In this document: positions 1-38,694 of the stretch, piece by piece | How the letters are laid out: each line of letters begins with the position of its first letter | Position numbering within the stretch: the stretch's first letter is position 1 | NCBI GenBank assembly: GCA_030602965.1 | Contig: JAUVYS010000001.1 | Span: 1-62,838, forward strand | Reading direction: 5' to 3' | From: Candidatus Bathyarchaeota archaeon | GTDB taxonomy: Archaea; Thermoproteota; Bathyarchaeia; RBG-16-48-13; JAGMEO01 | Length of the DNA: 62,838 nucleotides | Position numbers and translations under genes: made by a program | Notes under the pieces: model-generated | Database searches by the model: none | What the model was told of the DNA's origin: nothing | What the model saw: the letters and a program-made list of their open reading frames with translations, nothing else

Positions 1-313
1 GACGGATCTAGGTGGGAACTAGGGGTTCCCTGACCACAAATCCCCTCCATGGTGGACCGAAGACAAGGTGAGGCTTCTAGGCTCATTGTGTCTCTCAATC
101 CATCTGGCGTTGAGTACTCGTCCCTTGGGGTTGACGGTTTAGGTATGGCCTTCGTAGGAATGTCGTATCCGTATTCGTCGGGTGAACTTGGCTAGGCTCG
201 GGAGAGAGCAACCTAATCTCGAACGTTTAACGCTCAAGGGGTTGCGGGTATGAGCACAGGGATCGAGCAGCGCAATGAAAACCGGATGTCGATCCTCGAT
301 GATCCGTCGCCAC
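1..313 (+). ncRNA. Signal recognition particle (7S/SRP) RNA, 5' end cut by the window edge
   Basis: GC-rich block in an otherwise AT-rich window with no long ORF. Contains AGGCTCGGGAGAGAGCAACC, resembling the conserved helix-8 motif (GGUCCGGAAGGAAGCAGCC in E. coli 4.5S). 5' GACGGATC (1-8) pairs with GATCCGTC (301-308) like the terminal helix. An Alu-domain-like GGTGGGAACTAGGGGTTCCC lies near the 5' end. Confidence 0.7.
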
Positions 314-7498: not shown

Positions 7499-7683
7499 TA
7501 TGACTACCTGATTCTTTGAGTTCTTTGTTTCTATGATTTAAACCATCAAAATAGTTGACATCAATACTTTAGTTCAATATTAAATTGTGGTTTAGTATTT
7601 AAGCTTTCCCACCGTCAACTGTATAAAAACCAAAATTCGCATAAACACATAAAACCATAATTAGTTTTAAAGAGGTTAAGCAT

Positions 7684-7782
7684 GGGCCGGTGGTCTAGTA
7701 GCTAGGATACATCAAACCTTCGTTTGAGTTCAATACCCTTACAAGGTAGTGATCGTGGGTGCAAATCCCACCCGGCCCACCA
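7684..7782 (+). tRNA. tRNA-Val (anticodon TAC) with a 23-nt intron at a non-canonical position; CCA encoded
   Basis: Acceptor GGGCCGG/CCGGCCC, discriminator A. D-arm GTCT-AGTAGCTA-GGAT, T-arm GTGGG-TGCAAAT-CCCAC. Removing 7711-7733 gives anticodon arm CTACC-CTTACAA-GGTAG and a 73-nt mature body. Confidence 0.8.
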
Positions 7783-13931: not shown

Positions 13932-14429
13932 CTAAATATCATCTCCAAATTTGTTCCGTTTTTTCCCAAACTGCTTTAATGCATCTCCTCTCTCCATAAT
14001 TCTACTACAGTAATGACATCTTAGTACAAGAGGGGTTTCTGTTTCAATGATAAACGTTGGTTGGATAGGTTCATGGCTATTAGAAACACACGCCGGATTT
14101 GTACATTTTAACATGCCGTGAATAACTTTTGGTAATTTTGCCTTCTGTTTCTCGATAACCGTGAAGTCTCGTATTATGTTAATTGTTGCATGTGGCGCTA
14201 TTAGAGCTATCTTGTTCACTTCGTCAGAATTTAGTTCTCTTCCTTCAATTTTCACAATGTCCTTTAATCCAATTTTACTACTAGGCACATTAATTGCAAT
14301 ACTTACTATGTGTCTGGTTTGACTTGTTATTCCTAAAATATTTAGAACCGTCAAACTGTTACCTGCACTTATATGATCAATAACGGTTCCTTCCCTAATC
14401 TTTTTTATTCGAAGTTCTTCATCAGACAA
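13932..14429 (-). CDS. pyrI: Aspartate carbamoyltransferase regulatory subunit
   Basis: [10 protein letters not shown] allosteric-domain motif and C-terminal zinc domain CTNPAC...CHYC. Confidence 0.9.
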
Positions 14430-14604: not shown

Positions 14605-15522
14605 ATGCGTTTTGAAGGAAGAGACATTGTCTCCATCAAAGATTTTACTCGTGAAGAAGTTGAACATATCCTTAAAATTGCTAAACTGATGGAGCCTCTC
14701 ACCCGAAAAGGTTCAGACCTTTTAAACGGAAAAATATTGGCAAATTTATTCTTTGAACCTAGTACTAGGACAAAGCTTAGTTTCGAAGCTGCAATGCGTA
14801 GACTTGGCGGTGAATGTATAGGATTCTCTGACCCAACAACAAGCTCAATAAAAAAAGGAGAAAATTTAGCAGACACTATCCGTGTAGTTGAAAATTACTC
14901 AGACATAATAGTATTGAGACACCGCCTAGAGGGAGTTGCTAGAATGGCTGCTGAATTCTCAACTGTACCAATAATAAATGCTGGTTCAGGTAGCGAAGAA
15001 CACCCAACCCAAGCATTGCTTGACCTCTACACCATTAATAGAGAACTGGGAAGAATTGATGGGTTAAACATCGTTTTCGTTGGTGATCTAAGATATGGTA
15101 GAACGGTGCATTCTTTAGCATACGCTCTTGCTCTCTATGATGTTAATCTGTATCTAGTTTCTCCAGAGATTTTGCGGATGCGTAAAGAAGTTTTGAAAGA
15201 TGTCAAGAAGAGGATAAAAATCTTTGAAGTAGAAAACATTGAGAGCATTATTCACAAAGCAGATGTTCTTTATGTTACTAGAATTCAAAAGGAAAGGTTT
15301 CCTGATCCAGAGGAATATGAAAAAGTCAAAGGCTCTTATAGAATAACTTTAGATACTATCCGTCACGCAAAGAGCAGTCTTAATATATTGCATCCTCTCC
15401 CAAGAATCGACGAAATATCACCAGAAATAGATTCGACTCCATACGCTAAATATTTTAAGGAAGTTTGGTATGGTTTAGTGTTGAGAATGGGGTTGCTTGC
15501 TTTAGTTTTAGGTGCTGTTTAG
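14605..15522 (+). CDS. pyrB: Aspartate carbamoyltransferase catalytic subunit
   Basis: FFEPSTRT, HPTQ and HPLPR motifs. Confidence 0.95.
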   Translation: MRFEGRDIVSIKDFTREEVEHILKIAKLMEPLTRKGSDLLNGKILANLFFEPSTRTKLSFEAAMRRLGGECIGFSDPTTSSIKKGENLADTIRVVENYSDIIVLRHRLEGVARMAAEFSTVPIINAGSGSEEHPTQALLDLYTINRELGRIDGLNIVFVGDLRYGRTVHSLAYALALYDVNLYLVSPEILRMRKEVLKDVKKRIKIFEVENIESIIHKADVLYVTRIQKERFPDPEEYEKVKGSYRITLDTIRHAKSSLNILHPLPRIDEISPEIDSTPYAKYFKEVWYGLVLRMGLLALVLGAV

Positions 15523-15579: not shown

Positions 15580-16266
15580 TCAAACACGTAGAATTACTTC
15601 ATCAGAATATTTTTTCAATTTGTCAGCAAAGAGTTTAATTGTACTTAAGCTATATGGTTTAACTTTATTGAAGGCTATGTCTAAGGTGTCTCCTGTAACG
15701 AATTGTTGGATTGCATATCGTTTTGCTCCATTTACAATTTCTCCTATCTTAGAAATCGTTTCCTCTTCAATAAAGCCTGGAACAACTGTGCTCCTAAACT
15801 CATAATCTACATCTCCTCTTTTCACAATTTCAATGGTACGTAAAAAGTCGGTTATGTCTTTAGCTCCTAGCATAAAATATTTTTCAGGAGAAGTTTTCAC
15901 GTCTACCGCAACATAGTCTATGTAATTCAAACATTTCTCAAGTACTCCCGGGTAAAATCCATTTGTATCTAATTTTATTGTAAATTGTTGTTCCTTAAGC
16001 TTTTTTAAAAAGTGTGGAAGAGCGGTTTGAATTGTTGGTTCTCCTCCTGTAACTACTACGGTGTCTATGTATTTTTTTCTAGATTCAAGAATTTCTAGAA
16101 CTGTACTTTCTGAAAGAATTGGTTCTTTCAGTTTTATAACCAATCTCCAGTTATGACAGAAGGGACAGCGTAAATTACAGCCCTGAGTAAATAATACTGT
16201 AGAGGGCCGATCTGGGAAGTCAACAAGACTGGTTTTTTGAAGACCTCCAAACTTCATCTTTTTCAT
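15580..16266 (-). CDS. nrdG: Anaerobic ribonucleotide reductase activating protein (radical SAM)
   Basis: CNLRCPFCHN radical-SAM cluster motif. 4-nt overlap with nrdD. Confidence 0.85.
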   Translation of the reverse strand: MKKMKFGGLQKTSLVDFPDRPSTVLFTQGCNLRCPFCHNWRLVIKLKEPILSESTVLEILESRKKYIDTVVVTGGEPTIQTALPHFLKKLKEQQFTIKLDTNGFYPGVLEKCLNYIDYVAVDVKTSPEKYFMLGAKDITDFLRTIEIVKRGDVDYEFRSTVVPGFIEEETISKIGEIVNGAKRYAIQQFVTGDTLDIAFNKVKPYSLSTIKLFADKLKKYSDEVILRV

Positions 16267-18383
16267 TGGACAGAAGTCACGGTATATTCTAATGGTTTAT
16301 CAAATGTTTTCCTAATCTTAAACTCAGACTGTTTTCCATCATTCCACTGATCGACTGGTCGAAGGTAGCCTACAACCCTTGAGTATACTTCACACTTTGA
16401 TCCACACGTTGGACATTTTGCATATTCTCCAGATATGTAGTTATGTGTTGGACATACACTGAATACCGGGGTCAACGTAAAGTATGGTAACTGTGAATTT
16501 TCTGCAATTTTTTTAACTAATTCAGCTGCTGCTTTCCATGAGTGAACGCATTCACCTTGATAAACATGGAAAACTGTGCCGCCGGTGTACAAGGTTTGCA
16601 GGTTATCTTGATGTTCTAATGCTTCAAAAAGGTCACCTTGAAAATCAACTGGTAGTTGAGAAGAGTTAGTATAAAACGGTTCGGCGCCTTCCAATAGGTA
16701 TTTTTCATTGGCAACAATTATATTTGGATATTTTCTTTTATCTATGCGTGCTAGTCTATATGATGCCCCTTCAGCTGGGGTTGCTTCAAGATTATATATG
16801 TTTCCTGTTTCTTCTTGATAATTTGAAAGGTTTTTTTTCATGAATTTTAATACTCTAATGGCGAAAGAGAGTCCCTCACGACCAGTTATATCGTATCCGA
16901 AGAGATTGAGAATAGCTTCATTCATACCTAAAATACCAATAGTCGAAAAATGATTTTGCCAATATCTTCTAAATGCTTCTTTAACTTTCTTTAAATAATG
17001 TTTAGAATAGGGGTACAATCCGTTTTCAGAAAATCTTTCAAGCAATTTTCGTTTTATTTCTAATGTATCCTTTGCAAGATCCATTAATTCAGCGAGTCTC
17101 TCAAAGAATTTTTCTTCACTATTATGGAGGTAACCAATTCGAGGAAGATTTATTGTAACTACTCCTATAGATCCTGTTAAAGGATTAGCTCCGAAGAGCC
17201 CGCCACCACGCTTTCGCAATTCTCGATTATCTATTCTAAGGTGACAACACATACTTCGTACATCTTCGGGTTTCATATCACTATTAATAAAATTAGAGAA
17301 ATACGGTGCGCCATATTTAGCAGTCACACTAAATATTTTCTTTGCAACCGGCGAGTCCCAATCAAAGTTTCTTGTTATACTATATGTTGGTATTGGAAAA
17401 GTGAAAACTCTACCCTTTGCATCCCCTTCATTCATAACTTCTGCAAATGCCATATTAAAGATGTCCAATTCATCCTGAAACTCGCTGTAAGTATCGTTCG
17501 AAATTTGTCCTTTAATTATTACTGGCTCATTTGAAATGAAATTTGGAACCGTTAAATCAAATGTTACATTTGTGAATGGTGTTTGGAATCCTACCCGAGT
17601 TGGAATGTTTATGTTGAAAAAGAATTCTTGAATTGACTGCTTAACCTCGCGATAGTTTAATCCATCACTCCGAATGAATGGTGCAAGATAAGTATCAAAA
17701 TTACTAAATGCTTGAGCTCCTGCTGATTCTCCTTGTAATGTATAAAAAAAGTTAACTATTTGACCTAAAGCAGTTCTAAAGTGTTTGGCAGGTTTACTTT
17801 CAATCTTTCCAGAAACACCACCAAAACCTGAGAGCAGTAATTCTCTCAAATCCCAGCCAACACAATAGGCGCCAAGAACACCTAGGTTATGGATGTGCAC
17901 ATCTCCATGTAAATGCGCATTTCCAATAACGGGCGGATATAGCCGTGAAATCCAATATTTTGCTATTAAAGTTGAAGAGAGATAATTATTCAATCCTTGA
18001 AGCGAGTAACTCATGTTTGAATTCTCACGGATGCGCCAGTCCTCGATATCAAGATATTTGTCTATTAAATCCCCGTTGCTTAAAAGAGAAGCCGTCTCTC
18101 GTAAATCTTGATGTTGCTTTCTGTATAAGATGTATGCTTTTACCGTTCTAACATGACCTTTTTCAATAAGTTTTTTTTCAATAGTATCTTGGATTTCCTC
18201 CACTGTAGGAATTCCTTGCGAACCAAGACGTTCATTAAGTTCATTTACAACCTCATCGCTTAAGGCACTGGCAATTTCTTTATCTTTCCCACCAACAGCT
18301 TTGATGGCTTTCCATATGGCGTTGGTTATTTTGTCTTTATCAAATTTAGCAAGCACCCTGTCTCTTTTTCTAATGTATTTCAT
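16263..18383 (-). CDS. nrdD: Anaerobic (class III) ribonucleoside-triphosphate reductase
   Basis: N-terminal ATP-cone, SMCCHLRID active-site cysteines, C-terminal CPTCGSKC zinc site followed by the glycyl-radical motif RVVGYL. Confidence 0.95.
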   Translation of the reverse strand: MKYIRKRDRVLAKFDKDKITNAIWKAIKAVGGKDKEIASALSDEVVNELNERLGSQGIPTVEEIQDTIEKKLIEKGHVRTVKAYILYRKQHQDLRETASLLSNGDLIDKYLDIEDWRIRENSNMSYSLQGLNNYLSSTLIAKYWISRLYPPVIGNAHLHGDVHIHNLGVLGAYCVGWDLRELLLSGFGGVSGKIESKPAKHFRTALGQIVNFFYTLQGESAGAQAFSNFDTYLAPFIRSDGLNYREVKQSIQEFFFNINIPTRVGFQTPFTNVTFDLTVPNFISNEPVIIKGQISNDTYSEFQDELDIFNMAFAEVMNEGDAKGRVFTFPIPTYSITRNFDWDSPVAKKIFSVTAKYGAPYFSNFINSDMKPEDVRSMCCHLRIDNRELRKRGGGLFGANPLTGSIGVVTINLPRIGYLHNSEEKFFERLAELMDLAKDTLEIKRKLLERFSENGLYPYSKHYLKKVKEAFRRYWQNHFSTIGILGMNEAILNLFGYDITGREGLSFAIRVLKFMKKNLSNYQEETGNIYNLEATPAEGASYRLARIDKRKYPNIIVANEKYLLEGAEPFYTNSSQLPVDFQGDLFEALEHQDNLQTLYTGGTVFHVYQGECVHSWKAAAELVKKIAENSQLPYFTLTPVFSVCPTHNYISGEYAKCPTCGSKCEVYSRVVGYLRPVDQWNDGKQSEFKIRKTFDKPLEYTVTSVQ

Positions 18384-18573
18384 TTCGATCCTACTGCTTT
18401 TTTATAAATTTGGCATATGCTTATAATGAAATAGAATAATTGAAGAGAATTAATTCTATGGCTTTGTTTTTGTGAGTTAGCAACCAAATAGCCCCTTTCA
18501 CTAACTTTAATATTTTGTACAGAATAGTTTAAAAAATTAAAGTAATAGTTAATCCTTTTTCCCATGTTTTTTT

Positions 18574-20901
18574 CTAAAGAAAGTAACGAACTCTTTTGTT
18601 AAGCCTTTTTCGTTTTGAAGCTGACCAAAGATCTAATGGCAAATATCTAGCTGATGATCGCCCATATGTTGTTATGGTCTCAACAGATTCACATTTAGGA
18701 CATTTAACAAGATGCGTAGTAAAAACTTTTTTACAATTATTACAATAACTGAGTTGTCTAGAATAAGTGAAAGCACCAACAGTTGTGGATTGACATATTT
18801 CTTTTGACATATTAAATAATTTTTCAGCATTCTGTTTCTGTTCATGAAGCTCAATGATAGCTAGATGGCCGCCCGTAAACAAGGCATGAAAATCGCCTTC
18901 AATTTGCAAGCGTTCTTTAAGAGGTATTTGAGTTTCTAGTGGAACTATTACAAGATCAGTGTAATAAGGAGCTGTTTTTGTTCCTTGCGCGTATATTGAA
19001 GCCCAGCCATATCTATCTTTATCCAGCTCTGCAAGTCTTTGAGAAGCTTCATCACTTGGTGTCTGCGCAAGAACTGCTCTCTGATTAGTATTTTTAGAAT
19101 GTATATTGATGATTTTTCTTGCATGCTCAACAATTTCTTTAGCAAATTTTAACGCATCTTGAGACCCATGAAGTTCAAGGCCTCTATGAAATTTAACTGC
19201 TTCATACAAACCAATAAGCCCTACAACCTGTAAAGAAGAAGCCACCCGAAAATATGCGTCCTTTAAAACAGAATGAGATAAAATAGGCAACAAAAACTGG
19301 TTCATACGTTCTTCAATAATTTTGTACTTTATTTTTAATGTCCTAAGTGCCATGCTAACATATTTATCAAATAATTCAAAAAACTTATCATCATTTCTGT
19401 CAGCTTCATAAGCTAATCTTGGCAAATTTACCAAAACCTTGTCTAAACTGCCCGTTCTTAGTGTATCTAAATTCCAATCTGTGGTCCAATCTGACGATAA
19501 TTTTGTCCCTGAAGTAAAATATGTAGAACTCACTTGTCCTTCAGAAATTAAATTTGAAAAGAATGGCGTTCCATGTTTTGCTACGAGTTCATGAACTTTA
19601 ATTAATAAAGACTCATTATCTTTTCCAAAATCTTCTGGTCTTAAATTGAATATTAAAAATGGATGAAAAACAGGCATATTATAATCGTTTTCAAACATCA
19701 CATCTAGAAGAGCCTTTAAAACTGTGTGCGCTTCATCTAAGAAATCACCATAATTGCCAATTTCCTTTCCTTTAACAGAAGCCTTAATCTTTTCAAGATG
19801 ACTAGGTATCGTTGCATCAACTGACAACGCTACTTCAGCAGGGTAAATGCCATAACCTGTGATTTGGTTTAAATTGTAAATGAACATACGAATAGCTTCT
19901 TTTATTTTATCGAAAGAAAGGCCGCTCACATAAGGAGCTAGAAAAGTATTGAAGTAACTTATCATCTGTTCTCCTGTTAATTCTCTAGCAGTAGCACTCA
20001 TTATTACATTAATAACAGAAAGTGCAGCATTGAATGTTTTCGGAGGATTTAAAAATAAAGAAAAAGGTCTTCTCTGATCTAATTTAAAGCCATGTTTCAA
20101 GAAAAATCTTAGATCGTGTTGAAACTCGCAGGGTTTTAGTATCCAACTACCCAAATTTTCTATATGAATAAATCCTGATAGATGGGCGTTTGCTATATCT
20201 TGAGGAAGCGTGTTAATTAGAACATATTCTCTTATTATGCTGTCGCTTGTTGAATTACGAATCGTTTCGACGTTTAAACCAGTTTTACCAGCCGTTTGTA
20301 TAAGTTGTGACACATCGTAGACAGGAAGCCCAAGTCTAGTTAACTTATCTCTGTACTCTTTTAAACCCTTCTCAATAAGAACAGCATTGACAAATTCTCT
20401 GATTAAAGGCGCAGTTAAATAAAGAGCTCCTAGATTGAGTAATCTCTCCTCTACTTCACTAACAATCTTTTGAGCTAGAATAGCTGGAATATTTGCTTCC
20501 TTAATCAGGGATTTGGCAATTTTATTTCGATCAAACTCTTCCAGTGTTAGCCGCGAAGTTCTTACAAGACGCTTTTCACGTTTTCTTAGCAGCCGTTCTT
20601 CAAGACTTCTGGAGAATTCAACTACATCTCCTCCCAAAAGAGTGAGCACGTATTTTTTATTCTTTTTATCTACTTTTACTAAACCAGATTGTCGAAGCCG
20701 ACGAAGATGATAAGCAAATTTTCCAGCATCACGATTTGGATGAAGTTTGATACTATTCATAATATCGCTGTAGCTTAAAGCCCCCTGTGTATAAAGCAAC
20801 TTCAATGTTTTAAGACGAAGCGGATCTGAAGAAGCATCCAAAATCCGTGAACTGAGTCTATTAGAACGAATGGACAAGATGATCCTTAGAATTTTAGTCA
20901 A
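18574..20901 (-). CDS. wHTH + ATP-cone + NrdD-like domain protein lacking the catalytic Cys pair and radical Gly
   Basis: N-terminus is ArsR-like (LKTLKLLYTQGALSYSDIM...FAYHLRRLRQSGLV), then an ATP-cone, then a body collinear with NrdD (LGSWILKPCEFQHDL vs LGVLGAYCVGWDL). SMCCHL is replaced by TYFTSG, and YSRVVGYL by YGRSSARYL. TTG start. Confidence 0.8.
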   Translation of the reverse strand: MTKILRIILSIRSNRLSSRILDASSDPLRLKTLKLLYTQGALSYSDIMNSIKLHPNRDAGKFAYHLRRLRQSGLVKVDKKNKKYVLTLLGGDVVEFSRSLEERLLRKREKRLVRTSRLTLEEFDRNKIAKSLIKEANIPAILAQKIVSEVEERLLNLGALYLTAPLIREFVNAVLIEKGLKEYRDKLTRLGLPVYDVSQLIQTAGKTGLNVETIRNSTSDSIIREYVLINTLPQDIANAHLSGFIHIENLGSWILKPCEFQHDLRFFLKHGFKLDQRRPFSLFLNPPKTFNAALSVINVIMSATARELTGEQMISYFNTFLAPYVSGLSFDKIKEAIRMFIYNLNQITGYGIYPAEVALSVDATIPSHLEKIKASVKGKEIGNYGDFLDEAHTVLKALLDVMFENDYNMPVFHPFLIFNLRPEDFGKDNESLLIKVHELVAKHGTPFFSNLISEGQVSSTYFTSGTKLSSDWTTDWNLDTLRTGSLDKVLVNLPRLAYEADRNDDKFFELFDKYVSMALRTLKIKYKIIEERMNQFLLPILSHSVLKDAYFRVASSLQVVGLIGLYEAVKFHRGLELHGSQDALKFAKEIVEHARKIINIHSKNTNQRAVLAQTPSDEASQRLAELDKDRYGWASIYAQGTKTAPYYTDLVIVPLETQIPLKERLQIEGDFHALFTGGHLAIIELHEQKQNAEKLFNMSKEICQSTTVGAFTYSRQLSYCNNCKKVFTTHLVKCPKCESVETITTYGRSSARYLPLDLWSASKRKRLNKRVRYFL

Positions 20902-21051
20902 ACCTTAGTGTTATAGTTTTTGATGAACAACATGGCTTGATAAGAAAAGATTTTAAAAGAAGTGTTTTTAGCCCACCGTTTTTTTCTTAATTCAAATCTC
21001 AAACTTTAACAAACTAAATTAAGAACAAAATACTTTTACAATAAATCTGAG

Positions 21052-21172
21052 GGGGCCGTCGGCTAGCTTGGTCTAGGCTTGGAGGCTCGGGAACTCAAGT
21101 CGAGATTCCTTCAGACCCCGGTTCAAAAACCTGTTTACCTCTTTAAACAGGCTGAAAATCCGGGCGGCCCCA
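21052..21172 (+). tRNA. tRNA-Pro (anticodon CGG) with two introns (anticodon loop and T-loop)
   Basis: Acceptor GGGGCCG/CGGCCCC, discriminator A. Anticodon arm GGAGG-CTCGGGA...CCTTC with about 15 extra nt. T-arm CCCGG-TTCAAA[about 31 nt with hairpin CCTGTTTA/TAAACAGG]T-CCGGG. No encoded CCA. The D-arm is slightly irregular. Confidence 0.7.
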
Positions 21173-38565: not shown

Positions 38566-38694
38566 GCCGGGGTGGCTGAGCGGTTTAAAGCGCTGGACAC
38601 AATTTAAAAGACCAGAATCGAAATCCAGTTCTCCCTTTGACTTAATAATTAAGAAGGACCGAGAGCATGGGTTCAAATCCCATCCCCGGCGCCA
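38566..38694 (+). tRNA. tRNA-Ser (anticodon CGA) with two introns (anticodon loop 32/33 and variable arm); CCA encoded
   Basis: Acceptor GCCGGGG/CCCCGGC, discriminator G, D-arm TGGCTGAGCGGTTTAAAGCGC. Anticodon stem CTGGA/TCCAG encloses C[19 nt]TCGAAA. Long variable region TCTC...GAGA has about 22 extra nt including CTTAAT/ATTAAG. T-arm ATGGG-TTCAAAT-CCCAT. Confidence 0.75.

Follow-up and report, generated by a model that had tools for sequence, protein, structure and literature searches.

A catalytically dead NrdD paralog with an N-terminal winged helix as a candidate regulator of ribonucleotide reductase genes in Bathyarchaeia

The subject of this study is a 62,838-nt stretch of DNA from Candidatus Bathyarchaeota archaeon (contig JAUVYS010000001.1 of assembly GCA_030602965.1), which at its full length is called the window below. 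Directly upstream of an intact gene for the anaerobic (class III) ribonucleotide reductase (RNR), NrdD, the window encodes a protein in which a winged helix-turn-helix (wHTH), an ATP-cone-like domain and an entire NrdD fold are joined in one chain and the residues of catalysis have been lost. Hereafter this protein is called the paralog. Its architecture is conserved across a large family, the genes of which are linked to RNR genes and flanked by specific DNA boxes. On balance, we consider it probable that the paralog is an enzyme-derived transcription factor for nrd genes, and one that is itself probably responsive to nucleotides. If this is true, the family supplies an RNR regulator for the Bathyarchaeia, a very abundant uncultured sediment lineage, and offers a clean case of a radical enzyme recycled whole as a ligand-sensing transcription factor.

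Loss of the catalytic residues

The functional positions of a class III RNR were taken from the cryo-EM study of PcNrdD (Gly711, Tyr712, Cys416, Cys171, the NxN flap and the HxHD motif; PMC11226230) and transferred by way of alignments to solved NrdDs in the PDB, with NrdD residues numbered as in the intact enzyme of the window. The radical-bearing Gly672 of that enzyme corresponds to A751 in the paralog and the conserved Tyr673 that follows it to R752, such that the former glycyl-radical loop reads Y-G-R-S-S-A751-R752-Y-L-P. Cys380, the thiyl (initiator) residue of the finger loop, is replaced by T466 in a loop of sequence YFTSGTKLSSDW, and Cys174, on the bottom face of the first strand, by E259. 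The HxH(D/N) triphosphate motif of live NrdDs is represented by HIEN (H-I-E) in the paralog and by H-x-N/S across the family, and the NxN substrate flap is without counterpart. A first-pass annotation, made by eye from the DNA, had reported that the Cys pair of the NrdD segment RSMCCHLRID is gone, and the threonine at the finger-loop Cys position bears this out. It had also matched YGRSSARYLP to YSRVVGYLRP and read Ala plus an extra Arg in place of Gly; the exchange of Gly for Ala stands, but the Arg is a substitution for the Tyr, with no insertion. The C-terminal CxxC...CxxC zinc site, which it took to be retained, is indeed kept, the four Cys of the Zn ribbon (C720, C723, C734 and C737) being invariant or nearly so in the family.

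The same losses extend to the relatives. In 121 members, the radical-Gly column holds Ala 93 times, Ser 19 times and Gly twice, and the column of the following Tyr holds Lys or Arg. The bottom-face Cys is found in none of 231 full-length relatives; 56 of them are missing the radical loop altogether, and of the 14 that have Gly at the radical column, none has the catalytic Cys residues as well and P0210 alone has the following Tyr. At the finger-loop thiyl position, Cys occurs in 67 of 128 motif-matching members and Thr, Asn, Leu, Ser, Lys or Val in the others, which is the free variation expected once catalysis has been lost. The barrel motif NLPR and the first His of HxH are conserved in the family. 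Careful alignment against the solved enzymes thus places neither Gly nor Cys at the catalytic positions of the paralog, and not one of the 231 full-length members keeps the full catalytic set. As judged from its sequence, the paralog is confirmed as a catalytically dead NrdD.

Reading frame, domains and fold

The genes for the paralog, the 706-aa NrdD and the 228-aa NrdG activase lie in the same orientation on the minus strand (Table 1). Read from the TTG at 20901, the paralog has 775 residues. A second possible start, the TTG at 20877 (residue 9), would give 767 aa; it stands 5 nt behind a Shine-Dalgarno-like AAGGA (20883-20887) and matches the start of P0001, a homolog with 92% identity, and translation may begin there rather than at 20901. 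The first ATG, M48, lies within the winged helix and would truncate a domain kept by hundreds of homologs, all of which start upstream of it. Since either TTG leaves the wHTH complete, and every homolog has the domain, the objection that the HTH might be an artefact of a mis-called start, which the first-pass annotation had itself raised, fails.

Residues 23-95 match Pfam DUF7347 (E 2e-7; 31.4 bits, passing the gathering cut-off of 27.6), a domain precomputed for most members of the family. The ArsR-type models HTH_5 (16.5 bits, cut-off 22) and HTH_20 (15.1, cut-off 27) stay below their thresholds, as does the NCBIfam ArsR/SmtB model NF033788 (27, cut-off 55), and the closest solved sequences, those of ArsR, CadC and PagR, are weak matches, the best being ArsR at E 0.08. 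The DUF7347 match above cut-off and these weak ArsR-type matches together confirm the ArsR-like winged helix of the first-pass annotation. No NrdR or Zn-ribbon model matched the N-terminus in Pfam and NCBIfam scans. In an AlphaFold2 (AF2) model built from 115 family sequences, with a mean predicted local distance difference test (pLDDT) score of 86.4, the domain comprises helices 27-39, 44-50 and 59-71 and a wing of strands 75-78 and 83-86 (pLDDT 82-93).

The second domain is matched by Pfam ATP-cone (residues 113-183; E 3.9e-6, 27.8 bits against a cut-off of 25.8) and the remainder by Pfam NRDD (residues 208-773; E 3.7e-99). With the NCBIfam NrdD equivalog TIGR02487, the paralog scores 325.6 bits, just under the cut-off of 326.35, and it lies far under the cut-offs of the other NrdD equivalogs. 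From the cone to the C-terminus it is collinear with the neighbouring class III reductase, as had been claimed, at 27% identity over ~700 residues (BLASTP, E 4e-57). The structure prediction proposed in the first-pass annotation gives the same picture: a Foldseek search of the PDB with the AF2 model returns NrdDs, and nothing else, as its top 36 matches (E down to 3e-30; template modelling scores of 0.72-0.76 on the target). By this search and by Cys conservation, the paralog has the ten-stranded NrdD barrel with its C-terminal Zn ribbon, and the ribbon and the former Gly loop are modelled at pLDDT 86-90.

Family, ancestry and selection

More than 120 full-length proteins of ~770 aa, 45-92% identical, share this architecture. 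Databases name them 'anaerobic ribonucleoside-triphosphate reductase' or 'HTH domain-containing protein', and the former annotation leads to overcounts of RNRs and can misdirect the metabolic reconstruction of Bathyarchaeia. When one genome per species was scanned, relatives turned up in 480 stretches, from about 480 species-level genomes, and the best 80 of the 480 are essentially all from Bathyarchaeia, including Ca. Bathyarchaeum tardum; in the closest, locus L001 of a Bathyarchaeota metagenome-assembled genome (MAG), the protein is 93% identical and the gene order is that of the window. With the N-terminal 205 residues as query, 872 representative clusters are retrieved, 119 of them at E <= 1e-30, and nearly all are proteins of 560-800 aa with the module at the N-terminus. 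The survey of archaeal genomes suggested in the first-pass annotation has thus uncovered a large Bathyarchaeia family with hundreds of members. One MAG carries two of them, 67% (L002, CAZKBR010000011) and 47% (L011, CAZKBR010000013) identical to the window protein and each preceded by the same pair of metallophosphoesterase genes; either the genome has a real second copy, or the bin combines two populations.

Three NrdD subtypes adjoin the paralog genes. That of the window is referred to as a-type, and b-type denotes the bathyarchaeal lineage with the finger loop NSQCCR and the C-terminal motif RITGYYQR. Whatever NrdD adjoins them, all 231 full-length members are closest to the b-type, with median scores of 343 bits for b-type, 238 for c-type and 141 for a-type. 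The paralog is 33-34% identical to b-type NrdD over ~680 residues, and its cone is nearly superimposable in sequence on the b-type N-terminal domain (VRTS[KR]...APLIRE...YTRLGLP). The b-type affinity of every member and the shared cone indicate an old derivative of b-type NrdD with an added winged helix, not a duplicate of the neighbouring gene; the enzyme from which the first-pass annotation had the regulator derived is an NrdD of another subtype than the neighbour.

Purifying selection bears most heavily on the cone and on the recognition helix. The mean frequency of the top residue is 0.86 in the cone (with its linker), 0.93 in residues 161-200, 0.76 in the winged helix, ~0.66 in the NrdD body and 0.51 in the former Gly loop. 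The recognition-helix core RDAG[KR]FAYHL[KR] does not vary across the 80 loci; for this reason, a search for covariation between helix and DNA box gave nothing usable, as the single Y/T difference tracks phylogeny. Divergent members of 565-665 aa retain DUF7347 at 37-47 bits and the ATP-cone at E 1e-8 to 1e-10, and their bodies give only partial NRDD matches (E 1e-4 to 1e-13). Such a pattern, with wHTH and cone conserved and the body decaying, would be expected of a protein whose function lies in its DNA-binding and sensor domains, the barrel serving mainly as scaffold.

Genomic context

The NrdD of the window, the presumed target, scores 1066.9 bits with NCBIfam NF006126 and E 4e-192 with Pfam NRDD, and its active site is intact (Cys174, the finger-loop Cys-Cys with Cys380, Gly672, Tyr673 and the RVVGYL motif). 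Among the 65 informative loci, defined as those with at least 1 kb of downstream sequence, 35 have a live nrdD with all catalytic residues directly downstream of the paralog on the same strand. These enzymes belong to the a-, b- and c-types and are only 25-34% identical to the paralog. Downstream genes of 730 aa that resemble the paralog were suspected of being second dead copies, a suspicion that was rejected, as they are live NrdDs of other subtypes.

The c-type nrdD, which has the finger loop CYQCCAYC, is preceded by a gene for a glutaredoxin-like NrdH. This 101-aa glutaredoxin-like gene (NrdH-type, CxxC) lies between the paralog and c-type nrdD at L033 (11483-11788) and in 23 other loci, an arrangement which suggests that nrdH-nrdD is an operon for a redoxin-dependent class III RNR, transcribed from the promoter with the O-box described below. 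The association with RNRs also extends beyond class III. The gene of P0181, a divergent member of 634 aa, overlaps tail-to-tail with that of an 829-aa class I/II-type RNR composed of an ATP-cone and Ribonuc_red_lgN/lgC (L201 6613-9102; L202 5149-7638) and is divergent from a gene for phosphoribosyl pyrophosphate (PRPP) synthase. Three NrdD subtypes and one class I/II-type RNR at the adjacent position point to repeated replacement with the pairing retained. Other divergent members adjoin pyrB/NAC, and one lies among unrelated genes. PyrB, PyrI and NAC are conserved neighbours throughout, window included, even where nrdD is missing, and the order paralog-(nrdD)-pyrB-pyrI-NAC, kept across Bathyarchaeia, makes up a nucleotide-metabolism neighbourhood.

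Conserved DNA boxes

Two boxes recur around the genes of the family. The O-box, with the consensus TTATACAGAATTTTATAC-N9-TAAAAAATTAAA, is located in the gap after the paralog. A matrix made from 12 sites and scanned over both strands of 1.05 Mb gives 46 hits, 44 of which are in the post-paralog gap in sense orientation, with ~25 of these at non-seed loci (28-42 bits). The O-box is 90-96 nt from the nrdH start and anywhere from 3 to ~900 nt from the paralog stop, and it is present in 25 of the 41 loci with nrd or Cys85 genes (see below) downstream versus 2 of the 35 without, both of these being contig ends. The fixed distance to nrdH and the uneven occurrence together indicate that the O-box belongs to the downstream promoter. 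A search for O-boxes without a paralog nearby produced three apparent cases (L088, L158 and L192), all of which still have a paralog upstream, and in metagenome contigs every genuine extended O-box precedes nrdH/nrdD.

In ~39 loci the P-box, TACTyTAATTTTTTAAACTA with 13 near-invariant positions, precedes the start of the paralog by ~43 nt; elsewhere it has only 2 weak hits. It overlaps a TATA-like T-run of the paralog promoter. The 12-mer TTTAATTTTTTA is common to both boxes, in inverted orientation in the O-box, and 37 of its 38 occurrences in the 1.05 Mb flank the paralog gene. Half-site words of the O-box are absent upstream of the paralog.

In the window, the gap between the paralog and nrdD holds a candidate operator in which a P-box match is followed by a near-palindrome (Table 1); this block is kept between diverged flanks in L001 and, with substitutions, in L002. 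The TATA-like element nearer nrdD could possibly be a proximal (leaderless) promoter of that gene. The paralog's own promoter retains only a degenerate 3' part of the P-box, so that in this lineage the paralog may regulate its own gene weakly or no longer at all. This arrangement of boxes is atypical for the family. A scan for sigma-70 promoters and intrinsic terminators was uninformative, the host being an archaeon.

In four loci in which no nrdD follows the paralog (Table 1), its place is taken by a conserved 85-aa Cys-rich ORF with no Pfam match (…CxxKW…CExC…C…CETCG), here called Cys85. It is preceded by two box copies, one being the palindrome TATACAGAAATTTGTATA, and may be a further target of the same putative regulator. 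A Bathyarchaeum-like clade (L032-L038, L029, L035, L047 and L048) has two further conserved blocks upstream of the O-box, the first reading TTGACCCCTATATATAATAGAAAACACATCTTGGTCAA and flanked by the inverted repeat TTGACC/GGTCAA, the second, (A/G)TGTCAATTYG, ~12 nt before the box. Three loci have a full O-box in an atypical upstream context: L139 (motif at 7568), with an HTH protein and a 341-aa ORF in the paralog's place; L127; and L175, in which the paralog upstream is reduced to a wHTH fragment of 60 residues beside a TFB-like gene. These contexts may be rearrangements or assembly chimeras.

Regulatory model and alternatives

In the model that we favour, an ancient duplicate of b-type bathyarchaeal NrdD would have gained an N-terminal ArsR-like winged helix and would afterwards have lost the glycyl radical site, the catalytic Cys residues and the substrate flap. 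The retained body would form the usual NrdD dimer and so present two winged helices to AT-rich boxes with the core TTTAATTTTTTA. Its targets would be the P-box at the TATA region of the paralog's own promoter, the O-box in the promoter of the downstream nrdH/nrdD unit and, in the window, the single box before nrdD-nrdG. The cone-like domain, placed between wHTH and body, would sense nucleotide status, with the ATP/dATP balance as the expected signal by analogy with NrdD and NrdR, and would alter the geometry or oligomeric state of the protein, such that DNA binding, most likely repression, would follow the supply of deoxynucleoside triphosphates (dNTPs). Repression is the likelier sign because the P-box overlaps the T-run. 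That the dimer-interface specificity site has been kept as well, and that the balance of several dNTP pools is read through allosteric sites inherited from the enzyme and passed directly to nrd promoters, is a tentative extension that we hold to be doubtful. Around the specificity-site residues (PcNrdD E290, N298 and loop 2), sequence alignment is poor. If true, the extension would make the protein the archaeal counterpart of NrdR, an enzyme fossil whose input logic is richer. Since both the protein and its candidate operators have been defined, the hypothesis lends itself to direct testing in vitro.

Several observations weigh against this model. The canonical phosphate-binding pair of the ATP-cone (K7/R8 of PcNrdD) is T115/S116 in the paralog and in the whole family, and AF2 confidence in the cone is only 50-88. 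The ATP-cone named in the first-pass annotation holds as a Pfam match above cut-off, though as a divergent variant with T-S for the canonical K-R pair. T115/S116 are flanked by conserved R114 and R117, and the live b-type NrdDs have the same T-S variant, which argues that the cone domain still works; for the ligand residues of the cone's C-terminal helix, the alignment to a canonical ATP-cone is ambiguous. As for DNA, the 12-mer is absent upstream of the window's own paralog, and the box on the nrdD side is of P type and ~140 nt away from the ATG; a separate TATA-like element is closer to the start. Another factor could bind the P- and O-boxes, part of each box may simply be a TATA or TFB-recognition element (BRE), and a scan of metagenome contigs with the 18-nt core of the O-box yielded no further regulon members, all hits other than the genuine sites before nrdH/nrdD being chance matches. 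As for gene order, the statement of the first-pass annotation that the gene lies directly upstream of nrdDG is correct for the window, but nrdG adjoins only in L001, its closest relative, and in ~46% of the informative loci the paralog is not next to an nrdD. Around some divergent members there are no genes of nucleotide metabolism, and the conserved synteny with pyrB/pyrI/NAC means that part of the RNR linkage may be old gene order. Overall, the earlier proposal of a nucleotide-sensing regulator is supported by selection across the family, by decay of the body with an intact wHTH and cone, by RNR synteny and by the DNA boxes; its weakest link is the sensing of ATP/dATP, because the K-R pair is not conserved.

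Inherited gene order (tRNA-Pro, paralog, nrdD, pyrB, pyrI, NAC) could account for the whole of the nrdD adjacency, in which case the paralog would be a DNA-binding regulator with its main target elsewhere, for example in pyrimidine synthesis or in the paralog gene alone. The pyrB/pyrI/NAC block that adjoins the paralog even without nrdD, the many loci that lack a neighbouring nrdD, the four loci where a box precedes Cys85 instead of nrd genes and the one divergent member among unrelated genes all agree with such a view. It is nonetheless disfavoured, and we rate it as possible but unlikely, on account of the O-box geometry (a fixed distance to nrdH/nrdD, and near absence where no nrd gene follows) and of the repeated pairing with different RNR types; moreover, a scan of the window showed no box ahead of pyrB. 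A different role for the same architecture would be that of a non-catalytic partner of live NrdD, a regulatory or scaffolding subunit of a heterodimer that uses its wHTH for protein contacts or localisation. In class III RNRs, two subunits form a dimer that has allosteric sites at its interface (PMC11226230), the paralog retains the full NrdD fold and Zn ribbon, and its gene adjoins nrdD in many genomes. A conserved heterodimer interface is, however, unlikely with adjacent NrdDs of three subtypes at 25-34% identity to the paralog, and in many genomes there is no nrdD next to it. Conservation is lowest in the body, which decays in divergent members, as opposed to the invariant recognition helix. 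As specific conserved DNA boxes also flank the gene, a role as partner appears improbable.

The paralog might also still be an enzyme, with the NrdD barrel put to some other, non-glycyl-radical nucleotide reaction and the HTH secondary. A finger-loop Cys in about half of the family and the conserved NLPR, first His of HxH and Zn ribbon could be read in this way, but every class of residue that RNR chemistry requires has been lost, the one Cys that remains is variable, and the substrate flap has disappeared together with part of the triphosphate-binding motif. With a body that shrinks and loses its Pfam signal in divergent members, and with no alternative catalytic constellation conserved, this is very improbable and effectively excluded. 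The same holds, with still less room for doubt, for a decaying nrdD duplicate that acquired its upstream extension by chance. The lost catalytic residues and unusual TTG start are what a pseudogene might show, yet the frame is intact, hundreds of full-length homologs, at 42-92% identity, have the same architecture, the AF2 model is confident, and the paralog does not derive from the neighbouring gene; family-wide conservation alone already refutes this reading.

Relation to known systems

Bacterial RNR genes are controlled by NrdR, and we know of no dedicated RNR regulator for most archaea. In the searchable literature we found no example of an RNR-derived transcription factor, and full-text searches, which did not extend to subscription-only articles, brought up nothing relevant on DUF7347, on an HTH with an ATP-cone, on dead or pseudo NrdD or on the NrdD of Bathyarchaeota. 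PutA, BirA and NadR are enzyme-derived or 'trigger-enzyme' regulators that are usually still active enzymes. Like these, the paralog couples a metabolic enzyme scaffold to a DNA-binding domain, and by analogy its ligand binding would report the status of the pathway; the difference is that catalysis is gone throughout the family and that a radical enzyme of ~680 residues provides the scaffold. With ArsR/SmtB repressors it shares the weak match of its N-terminal 95 residues to ArsR-type models, but those proteins are homodimers of ~100 aa, whereas its wHTH falls below the ArsR/SmtB cut-offs and is fused to a 680-aa sensor module. It has the same fold as b-type NrdD from the cone to the C-terminal Zn ribbon, and the same cone variant, but lacks the Gly-Tyr pair, the thiyl and bottom Cys and the NxN flap, has an incomplete HxH and carries the added wHTH.

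NrdR is composed of a DNA-binding domain and an ATP-cone, its gene is often near RNR genes, and its boxes are in RNR promoters and often in its own (PMC9110341). The paralog likewise fuses a DNA-binding domain to an ATP-cone-type domain, often adjoins RNR genes and has conserved boxes at RNR promoters and its own, and the expected logic, by analogy, would be nucleotide-dependent repression of nrd genes. The DNA-binding domain of NrdR is a Zn ribbon, whereas that of the paralog is an ArsR-like winged helix. NrdR has ~150 aa, compared to ~770 aa with an entire dead NrdD body. The paralog's cone descends from that of NrdD and is without the canonical K-R pair, and its AT-rich boxes are unrelated to the GC-containing palindromic NrdR boxes. 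The first-pass annotation had spoken of a function like that of NrdR in a different architecture. The architectures are indeed unrelated, and the paralog is a functional analogue of NrdR at most, not a homologue of the whole protein.

Other features of the window

Table 1. Features of the window and, in the last row, of related loci
Feature	Position	Strand	Evidence or remark
Paralog gene (wHTH, ATP-cone-like domain, dead NrdD)	18574..20901	-	ORF, domains, homolog family
Winged helix-turn-helix, residues 23-95	20617..20835	-	Pfam DUF7347, AF2
Recognition helix RDAGKFAYHLRR	~residues 57-68	-	Inside wHTH
ATP-cone-like domain and following linker, residues 111-190	20332..20571	-	Pfam ATP-cone, conservation
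Dead NrdD alpha/beta-barrel body, residues 208-715	18757..20280	-	Pfam NRDD, alignments, Foldseek
C-terminal Zn ribbon and former glycyl-radical loop	18577..18756	-	Cys conservation, alignment
Candidate operator in paralog-nrdD gap, ATTACTTTAATTTTTTAAACTATTCTGTACAAAATATTAAAGTTA	18503..18546	-	P-box, then near-palindrome
P-box match	18521-18546	-	28.6 bits; next best in the window 12.9
12-mer TTTAATTTTTTA	18530-18541	-	Sole occurrence in the window
Near-palindrome ATTCTGTACAAAAT	18512-18525	-	Matches O-box half-site GTACAGAAT
TATA-like TTTATAAAA	18400..18408	-	17-25 nt upstream of nrdD ATG; read from sequence
Degenerate P-box 3' remnant CAAAAACTATAACACTAAGG	20903..20922	-	~45 nt upstream of 20877 start; comparison with TTTTTTAAACTAAATCGAACACTAATG of L017; weak
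nrdD, live (a-type, 706 aa, canonical ATP-cone), presumed target	16263..18383	-	NCBIfam, Pfam, intact residues
nrdG, activase (radical SAM)	15580..16266	-	TIGR02495 (NrdG2), 194 bits against cut-off 131; 4-nt overlap with nrdD stop
pyrB	14605-15522	+	Convergent to nrdG
pyrI	13932-14429	-	Beyond nrdG
Lrp/AsnC-family regulator, 131 aa	22840-23235	-	2 kb upstream of paralog, beside dapA/dapB/lysA-like genes
tRNA-Pro(CGG)	21052-21172	+	Divergent to paralog; missed by ARAGORN and Rfam
Archaeal signal recognition particle (SRP) RNA	1-308		Very start of the window
Over-length tRNA genes	7684-7782; 38566-38691		99 nt; 126 nt
Cys85 ORF in other loci	L008 2902-3159; L010 5364-5621; L015 5201-5458; L024 11536-11793

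The Lrp/AsnC-family gene is probably unrelated to the nrd locus. A GC-rich island at 21048-21172 was tried as a minus-strand RNA and rejected, since folding and Rfam gave nothing; it is the plus-strand tRNA-Pro gene with inserts. In 15 other loci, the corresponding position holds a tRNA-Pro of 78 nt; relative to it, the gene of the window, in which CCA is not encoded, has inserts after the anticodon arm and of ~30 nt in the T-loop, and these are probably non-canonical introns. The two over-length tRNA genes presumably contain introns as well.

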